A DNA stretch of 64,000 nt from Eledone cirrhosa (Eukaryota): assembly GCA_964016885.1 (NCBI GenBank), contig OZ024741.1, forward strand, positions 155,992,001 through 156,056,000, given 5' to 3'. This document shows positions 55,861-56,395 of this stretch, in pieces (position 1 is the stretch's first letter; each line of letters begins with the position of its first letter). Under the pieces are notes generated by a model. The model searched no databases. It was not told the DNA's origin and was given only the letters and a program-made list of their open reading frames with translations. The position numbers and the translations under genes are program-made.

Positions 55861-56395
55861 CAAATAAAATACAGAGTTACTAACTCATATTGATACCCTG
55901 CAATTAACAAGCTCAAAGTATAAATGCTGAGCATTATATAATAATATATGTAGAAATAAACACAGTAAATTGTGTGTCTAAAATTACGAGGGTAGAAATA
56001 CCACATTGCTTTGATAGATTTAACCTGAAGCATACGTAAGATATATCATATATATATACAGACCGTATCAATAACTATTTCATCTCTCGGACAGATTAGA
56101 GATTTAATCTGTTTCGCCCTGAAAATTGTGTTTGTAACAGATAATCCGTAGGCTTTCCTCAGCGAGAGATAAGATCAAATGGAACAAACACATGTAACTA
56201 CAATCCACACGAAGGAATATCTCACCTCGTGCGTTGGACGTTAGAAGAGGTGTGAGTGGATATGCTAGAAACCAACGTATAAACTCTGTATATATTATAT
56301 ATCTTACGTATGGTTCAGATTAAATCTATCAAACCAATGTGGTATTTCTACCCTCGTAATTTTAGACACAATTCACTGTGTTTATTTCTATATAT
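55861..56395 (-). mobile_element. ~535-bp ORF-less hammerhead element with inverted arms and ~85-nt tail in (TA)n
   Basis: 55947-56062 is mirrored by 56285-56395. Hammerhead at 56082-56170. Confidence 0.8.
56082..56170 (-). ncRNA. Type I hammerhead ribozyme with full stem III
   Basis: atctctcg-CTGAGGA-aa-gcct...agggc-GAAA-cagatta(aatctc)taatctg-TC-cgagagat: 8-bp stem I, perfect stem III, GUC site. Confidence 0.82.

Follow-up and report, generated by a model that had tools for sequence, protein, structure and literature searches.

The window, i.e. the whole 64,000-nt stretch of Eledone cirrhosa DNA analyzed here, contains on its minus strand a hammerhead ribozyme motif within one 0.9-unit, 5'-truncated and partly inverted copy of a high-copy repeat family, which we call family A (Table 1). 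An initial annotation made from the sequence alone had described a type I hammerhead with an 8-bp stem I, the core boxes CUGAGGA and GAAA, a stem III and a GUC site, and this motif was confirmed by direct reading and by folding: the minimum free energy (MFE) structure of the 97-nt motif was the type I structure (z = –3.19), and none of 200 shuffled sequences folded as well. In a descriptor scan of the 64 kb, the motif obtained the top score (20), whereas none of 20 shuffled windows yielded a match of at least 14. The Rfam hammerhead models, which had been suggested as a check, did not detect it at the gathering score or at E ≤ 10, probably due to the long loop II. The further description of the element, with inverted arms of ~115 bp around the hammerhead, a position inside (TA)n and no ORF, also held. 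The arms (~55935–56054 and 56289–56406) are about 91–92% identical, a (TA)57 tract forms the left flank, the longest ATG ORF in the circular family A monomer comprises at most 53 aa, and ORFs overlapping the window element are short or microsatellite-derived. The tail lies on one side as described, but mapping to the family gave a length of 77 nt instead of ~85 nt. No target duplication was readable within the (TA)57 tract. Because only one ribozyme and 414 of 465 nt are present, the window copy is unable to release a monomer by itself.

Table 1. Features of the family A copy and of the adjoining family B copy in the window; m-numbers refer to the family A monomer, counted from the cleavage site.
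Feature	Position	Strand	Basis or remark
(TA)57 tract, 3' end of the insertion	55746..55860	.	likely target
Family A main sense copy (m284–465, then m1–232; 414/465 nt), 5'-truncated	55858..56271	-	97% identical to the L003 monomer
Tail, m156–232, 77 nt, ending at End 2 (E2) and running into the (TA)n tract	55858..55934	-	
End 1 (E1, m138–158), first preferred 3' end of insertions, TA-rich	55935..55953	-	
Type I hammerhead motif	56082..56170	-	read from sequence, folding, descriptor scan, family alignment
Stem I, 8 bp, ATCTCTCG	56170–56163 with 56089–56082	-	direct reading
Core CUGAGGA	56162–56156	-	
Two extra As between core CUGAGGA and stem II	56155–56154	-	
Stem II, GCC(U)/(G)GGC, 3–4 bp, loop ~32 nt		-	direct reading
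GAAA core box	56115–56112	-	
Stem III, 8 bp, 6-nt closing loop		-	direct reading
GUC site	predicted cleavage after 56090 (between 56090 and 56089)	-	
Strand upstream of stem I, complementary to loop II (56147–56127)	56173..56192	-	putative pseudoknot clamp or blocking helix
17-nt junction between inverted arm and main copy	56272..56288	.	
Inverted, 5'-truncated copy of m36–155, head-to-head arm ending at E1	56289..56406	+	
Family B copy (520-nt ORF-less circle, canonical hammerhead), truncated inside the ribozyme, own tail	56445..56910	-	
Inverted arm of the adjoining family B copy	56820–56908		

The adjoining copy of a second family, family B, lies in the same microsatellite run and has the same tail-and-inversion layout as the family A copy. 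A different repeat occupies positions 56722–56819 and occurs again near 62080. Further along the window, two broken copies of autonomous-type Penelope elements (PLEs) were found at 57762–59500 (minus strand) and 59560–62004; Pfam gave no match in either, and RT-like and GIY-YIG-like fragments were recognized by eye. These copies carry minimal hammerheads with a palindromic helix III (~57890–57860, 59660–59600 and 61797–61867), and the second copy has a classic inverted 5' pLTR. Elsewhere in the window, the multi-kb regions 7026–10744 and 42059–46397 are similar to each other and are bounded on either side by tandem units of 22 nt and 8 nt in mirrored arrangement, which suggests a repeated element with long inverted termini.

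A search of the 3.0 Gb source genome returned 1,483 first-look candidates for family A, 40 of which were scored (92–97% identity), and a second search returned 2,054, again with 40 scored. An exact 35-mer of family A matched the genome 91 times (control 0), and an exact 15-mer common to family A and its sister family A2 matched 788 times (control 2); candidate and match numbers are all lower bounds. The sequence is high-copy, so that the single-copy status considered by the initial annotation as speaking against a retrozyme does not apply. The family unit is a 465-nt circularly permuted, ORF-less and AT-rich monomer (34% GC), numbered m1–465 from the cleavage site. Tiling of the loci showed that the tail runs via a linker of ~50 nt back into the family A unit, establishing the 465-nt circular permutation; fixed terminal repeats are absent. 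No tRNA was found in six family A loci, and no Pol III boxes were found in family A.

For the analysis of insertion ends, 155 family A records were reduced to 123 unique loci with 262 segments; the loci had been picked by similarity or exact motif, and length statistics are biased upward. The 3' ends of 222 of the 262 segments fall into two intervals, which together make up 7% of the unit and are 77 nt apart, with 129 segments ending at E1 (m138–158) and 93 at E2 (m226–236). Microsatellite sequence follows beyond 86 of the 93 E2 ends and 69 of the 129 E1 ends, and 37 of the E1 ends arise where a SINE-like element interrupts the unit, which partly inflates the E1 count. More than half of the 5' ends (153/262) adjoin another piece of the family. 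Both orientations are present in 85 of the 123 loci, and the other 38 are without inversion. In 31 of 33 cases, the inverted partner was nearer to its own main copy than the family median, indicating that inversions arise within one insertion. More than one unit was found in 45 of the 123 loci; two cleavage sites are crossed by six segments, which come from loci 84–90% identical to the reference. The longest locus (L033) comprises 1.87 units and is the only one in family A with two complete hammerhead motifs. A hard stop of reverse transcription at the cleavage site was considered and found unconvincing, as only nine 5' ends were located there compared to five expected, which is a slight excess. 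Judged by these genomic ends, the two internal 3' ends, the tail, the inversions and the (TA)n flanks are the insertion footprint of a PLE.

In 35 of the 123 loci, the palindromic TA-rich E1 (m~148–165; e.g. L006, L010 and L130) is occupied by the SINE-like element, in both orientations, with varied truncations and short duplications. A- and B-box-like motifs were visible by eye, and we take the element to resemble the tRNA-derived SINEs of octopus. The E1 site of family A appears to act as a hotspot for another retroelement.

Tandem copies were searched by exact matches with two cleavage sites 451–473 nt apart, a procedure that favours the younger A2 and undercounts older copies. Among the 40 pairs obtained, three begin like family A and the others like A2, whose circle shares 66–75% identity with that of A (79% for one intermediate). 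In the A2 hammerhead, the core is CUGAUGA, the spacer consists of a single nucleotide and stem II has 4 bp; stem III has the same 8 bp as in A. A2 arrays of ~7.2, 5.6 and 4 units terminate at E1 or E2 within (TA)n. Two of these arrays carry 5' inversions, and the six full units of the longest array (L276) are 100% identical. Tandem copies with at least two ribozymes are represented in family A by L033 and in A2 by most of the 40 pairs.

Family B yielded 2,205 genome candidates and aligns collinearly with the entire A circle (global score 87, compared to –43 ± 15 for shuffled sequences). The tail and a conserved block after E2 recur in two additional families, D (~507 nt, 2,602 candidates) and E (567 nt). 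Like B, these are ORF-less circles (507–567 nt for the three families) that are collinear and homologous with A; no hammerhead was recognized in family E. The initial annotation had recommended checking the stems for covariation. Within family A, which is too young for it, this was uninformative; in a comparison of A with B (n = 12) and D (n = 9), the stems differ in sequence yet remain paired. The block after E2 (m236–290), with the pattern GCTCC ... GAGCT ... CT.TTATTTCT, is conserved in A, A2, B, D and E. Its position is where the 5' UTR of a PLE would begin, and it could be a promoter or an RT-binding motif. An explanation of this GT...AG-like block as a retained intron was not supported, since 50 of 58 blocks were full length, no precise removals were found and A2 lacks the acceptor.

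Other hammerhead-bearing repeats were encountered in L101 (1–1400 and 6800–8001) and in L070/L109, namely a 690-nt unit, a ~511-nt tandem with a minimal motif and a TA-ending family with the core CUGAAGA. The 690-nt unit beside L101, termed family C, had no significant similarity to A or B. From these sequences, the source genome seems to contain many hammerhead-bearing repeat families. In seven loci (L193–L199; C14, C18, C19, C25, C27, C28 and unplaced contigs), a family B copy is located within a segment of >3 kb that is multiplied across small chromosomes.

Among 98 family A ribozyme copies, 57 have all core boxes intact, and the large majority of stem positions are paired (stem I 758/782, stem II 275/293, stem III 756/782), with loops as conserved as stems. 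N7 differs between subfamilies. The spacer between A9 and stem II varies from 1 to 3 nt (AA, UA, AU, AAA, AAU). The two extra As before the short stem II, which the initial annotation had raised as a caveat, are indeed present, but with a variable spacer throughout the family they are less of a concern. For PLE hammerheads, one unpaired nucleotide between A9 and G10.1 has been described (PMC4209133), and two unpaired nucleotides may lower the activity.

The initial annotation does not mention that the strand upstream of stem I is complementary to loop II. In nested folding, stem I formed with a probability of 0.96 when 15 nt of natural upstream sequence were included, but with 40 nt or more its probability dropped to 0.00–0.34, mostly ~0.02, and that of stem II likewise to ~0.02, because 56192–56173 pairs with loop II. 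Families A, A2, B and D all have this helix, each in a sequence of its own, and the median duplex energies were –14.7, –20.0, –14.4 and –13.2 kcal/mol (n = 46, 35, 10 and 9). Non-cognate pairs, leaving aside A/A2, gave –5.5 to –9.0, and shuffled loops gave –7 to –10 with minima near the cognate values. Loop II also pairs with downstream sequence (–11.1 in A, –15.5 in A2). Short pseudoknots between these regions activate many hammerheads (PMC3088659). The predicted helix of 15–17 bp in family A is probably too long to coexist fully with a closed stem II, and its role may be that of a clamp, blocker or switch. Cleavage of the family A monomer is uncertain, as the folding models retain a stable stem III and lose stems I and II with natural upstream sequence. 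In the circular fold of the monomer, 62–63% of the nucleotides are paired, but the z-scores are modest (–2.0 to –3.0) and the score of the antisense strand (–3.9) is no worse.

The initial annotation had also considered that other copies might always be attached to an RT-EN ORF, but none of 40 loci with 2.5-kb flanks, picked by pattern from the 91 exact matches, has a PLE ORF that runs into the ribozyme in the same orientation, and the only sequence common to the upstream flanks of the 262 segments was the SINE. The tail-to-linker junction had 238 exact matches, and all 30 that were fetched belonged to family A or B circles. The genome contains 10,596 GIY-YIG candidates, of which 150 were scored and ~70 loci examined, and a rare parent could lie among the remainder. 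Profiles of the monomer and of several families gave no pLTR match in 50 GIY-YIG loci, in 19 loci of a further PLE family or in the window; the profile matches obtained proved to be independent insertions of families D and E. The autonomous PLEs of this genome have the same TA-junction ends, and Pfam recognized RT and/or GIY-YIG in the three PLE ORFs tested. We call some of them 'Neptune-like' after the linker cysteine motif described in 10.1101/2021.04.23.441226; three such PLEs (L091, L103 and L108) carry in their 3' UTRs a minimal hammerhead with a U3-A8 core variant and a CCGG palindrome. The U3-A8 minimal variant has been described for Schistosoma PLEs (PMC4209133). Long natural PLE ORFs occur in this genome at L091, at L093 and in one family of the clade represented by L264.

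No partner PLE was identified among the PLEs sampled. Four Neptune-like loci with a retrozyme tail-to-tail in one TA tract were considered as evidence of co-insertion, which was rejected in favour of shared targeting; in a reverse count over 188 retrozyme loci, 14 tail-to-tail cases were spread over eight of nine PLE families. At L033, L146 and L264, the 5' end of a family A/A2 insertion is joined to PLE coding DNA without intervening microsatellite. These joins may represent template switches or microhomology joins to pre-existing copies. As indication of a partner, they were uninformative because three different PLE families are involved, and L264 shows microhomology.

Taken together, we consider it likely that family A is a non-LTR retrozyme, which was copied into (TA)n by the RT/endonuclease of a PLE, probably from circular RNA. 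The genomic sequences contain a closed permuted unit, fixed internal 3' ends, variable 5' truncation, inversions and read-through over one or two cleavage sites. The retrozyme reading of the initial annotation is thereby strengthened, with the closed permuted unit and the tandem arrays of the sister family resembling those of retrozymes. In the proposed cycle, the rare loci with two ribozymes would be transcribed, and the transcripts would cleave themselves to monomers, which a host ligase would close into circles. Transcription, cleavage and ligation into circles have been demonstrated for other animal retrozymes (PMC7229834). A PLE protein would nick the (TA)n DNA and start reverse transcription internally at E1 or E2, for which no free RNA 3' end would be needed. 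In vitro, a PLE protein was found to nick AT-rich DNA and to start reverse transcription at two internal RNA sites, with the tail being the interval between them (PMC11167929). The RT would then run round the circle until drop-off or re-priming, giving rise to 0.2–7 units and inversions, and the helix between loop II and the upstream strand would regulate cleavage. The window copy would be a dead-end product of this cycle.

Alternatively, family A might be an ORF-less mini-PLE, likewise mobilized in trans, that spreads from uncut linear tandem transcripts, with a slow, blocked or protein-dependent hammerhead and no stable circle. Mutations of the hammerhead left PLE insertion in vitro unaffected, most templates were RNAs that had not been cut, and the ribozyme of the PLE depended on protein (PMC11167929). 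As cleavage is dispensable there, uncut tandem transcripts could leave the same footprints in the genome, and cleavage was observed in only one of nine predicted retrozymes tested by Li et al. 2026 (10.64898/2026.07.22.740005). The dominance of the upstream helix over stems I and II in nested folding, the rarity of family A copies above 1.5 units, the partial tandems formed by PLEs themselves and the slight overrepresentation of the cleavage site among 5' ends, which fits some linear templates, are all in line with a linear template. However, full-length stems with different but paired sequences persist in A, A2, B and D, indicating long-term selection for a working ribozyme. The single insertion of ~7 units with PLE ends (L276) is most simply explained by rolling-circle copying, and the crossing of two cleavage sites by six segments, with two complete ribozymes present only in L033, points in the same direction. 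We regard spread from linear transcripts as unlikely, but as an alternative of some weight.

Much less probable is an origin of the copies from an abundant autonomous PLE outside our sample, as its solo pseudo-LTRs or gutted by-products. The PLE-type footprint and the direct joins to PLE coding fragments at L033, L146 and L264 would be expected from such an origin, and a sample of ~70 loci leaves room for a parent. Yet the tail returns seamlessly into the ORF-less unit, an upstream ORF or a common upstream flank other than the SINE was not found, no pLTR of the sampled PLEs matches the monomer profile, and the three direct joins lead to three different PLE families; this explanation is already largely refuted. 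The position of the window ribozyme amid two inverted arms of ~115 bp could also suggest a MITE-like or palindromic DNA element with the arms as terminal inverted repeats. This is hardly conceivable, because length and start of the arms vary at every locus, inversions are missing in 38 of the 123 loci and the units are permuted and 5'-truncated.

Beyond the retrozyme nature of family A, a wider interpretation, which we put forward tentatively and would not yet call probable, is that at least five families of 451–567 nt with thousands of copies represent old, self-sustaining viroid-like RNA circles without a coding parent, which are rolled into (TA)n by PLE RTs starting inside the circle and in which cleavage is switched off by the helix of loop II with the upstream strand, conserved and covarying among the families. 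For animal retrozymes, it is an open question which enzymes move them and whether the circle serves as template. PLEs were proposed as movers by Cervera & de la Pena (PMC7229834), and the view of retrozymes as non-autonomous PLE derivatives was argued from co-occurrence and pLTR homology in 31 vertebrates and four invertebrates (10.64898/2026.07.22.740005). To this, our analysis adds evidence from insertion ends, with a PLE signature on ORF-less circles including 7-unit products, an ORF-less clade without a sampled parent, and a hammerhead in which stem III is long and the loop II helix covaries. If the clade is indeed self-sustaining, its ends in the genome would represent the first direct footprint of PLE enzymes mobilizing retrozymes. 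The covarying helix is a candidate answer to the question how circles avoid cutting themselves, and the family A data name an RNA, start sites and candidate enzymes for in vitro work. The class as such is already known, and the advance lies in the mechanistic support and in a ribozyme variant that is missed by Rfam. Such an element is undescribed for cephalopods in the literature searched, but the supplement of PMC7229834 may list related motifs; the words ribozyme, hammerhead and retrozyme do not occur in the main text of the 2026 Octopus repeat annotation.

Animal non-LTR retrozymes, as described in PMC7229834 and 10.64898/2026.07.22.740005, share with family A the ORF-less, AT-rich unit of a few hundred nucleotides with one type I hammerhead, the occurrence as monomers, dimers and multimers, and the coexistence with PLEs. 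Retrozymes of this kind are self-cleaving, repeated elements with no LTR, PBS or PPT, expressed as circular and linear monomeric RNAs, and their circles have a highly self-paired fold. Their units measure 150–450 nt, or 51–972 nt in the study of Li et al. (10.64898/2026.07.22.740005). Family A differs in its loop II of ~30 nt that pairs with the upstream strand, in its mainly dispersed copies of less than two units with PLE-type tails and inversions, and in the lack of a readable target duplication. RNA circles were demonstrated for those retrozymes (PMC7229834), whereas family A is known from genomic sequence. In Xenopus, Li et al. were able to assign 24 of 57 families to known elements (10.64898/2026.07.22.740005), while no pLTR homology was found for family A in ~70 GIY-YIG loci and the window.

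Endonuclease-bearing PLEs resemble family A in their partial tandems and head-to-head 5' inversions, in the optional tail between two internal 3' ends, in AT-rich or (TA)n targets, and in a sense-strand type I hammerhead upstream of the ends with unpaired nucleotide(s) between A9 and G10.1 (PMC3846280; 10.1101/2021.04.23.441226; PMC11167929). The Penelope pattern of pLTR, inverted 5' copy and optional tail has been described (PMC3846280; 10.1101/2021.04.23.441226). In contrast to these PLEs, family A has no RT-EN ORF, and its tail of 77 nt is longer than their 30–40 nt. Its ribozyme is full-length, unlike the minimal dimer-type motif, and the autonomous PLEs of this genome have minimal motifs with a palindromic helix III. 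With 8 bp, helix III of family A clearly exceeds the 1–2 bp of most metazoan type I motifs and is comparable to the long helix III of hammerheads from fungal and protist PLEs, which is compatible with monomeric cleavage (PMC4209133). In pseudoknot-stabilized hammerheads (Perreault et al. 2011, PMC3088659), the regions of stems I and II are likewise connected by base pairing, but in the examples there the complementarity extends over 4–6 bp compared to ~15–17 bp in family A. Overall, family A appears to agree with animal non-LTR retrozymes in the sequence-level features tested and to be set apart from autonomous PLEs by its lack of an ORF.
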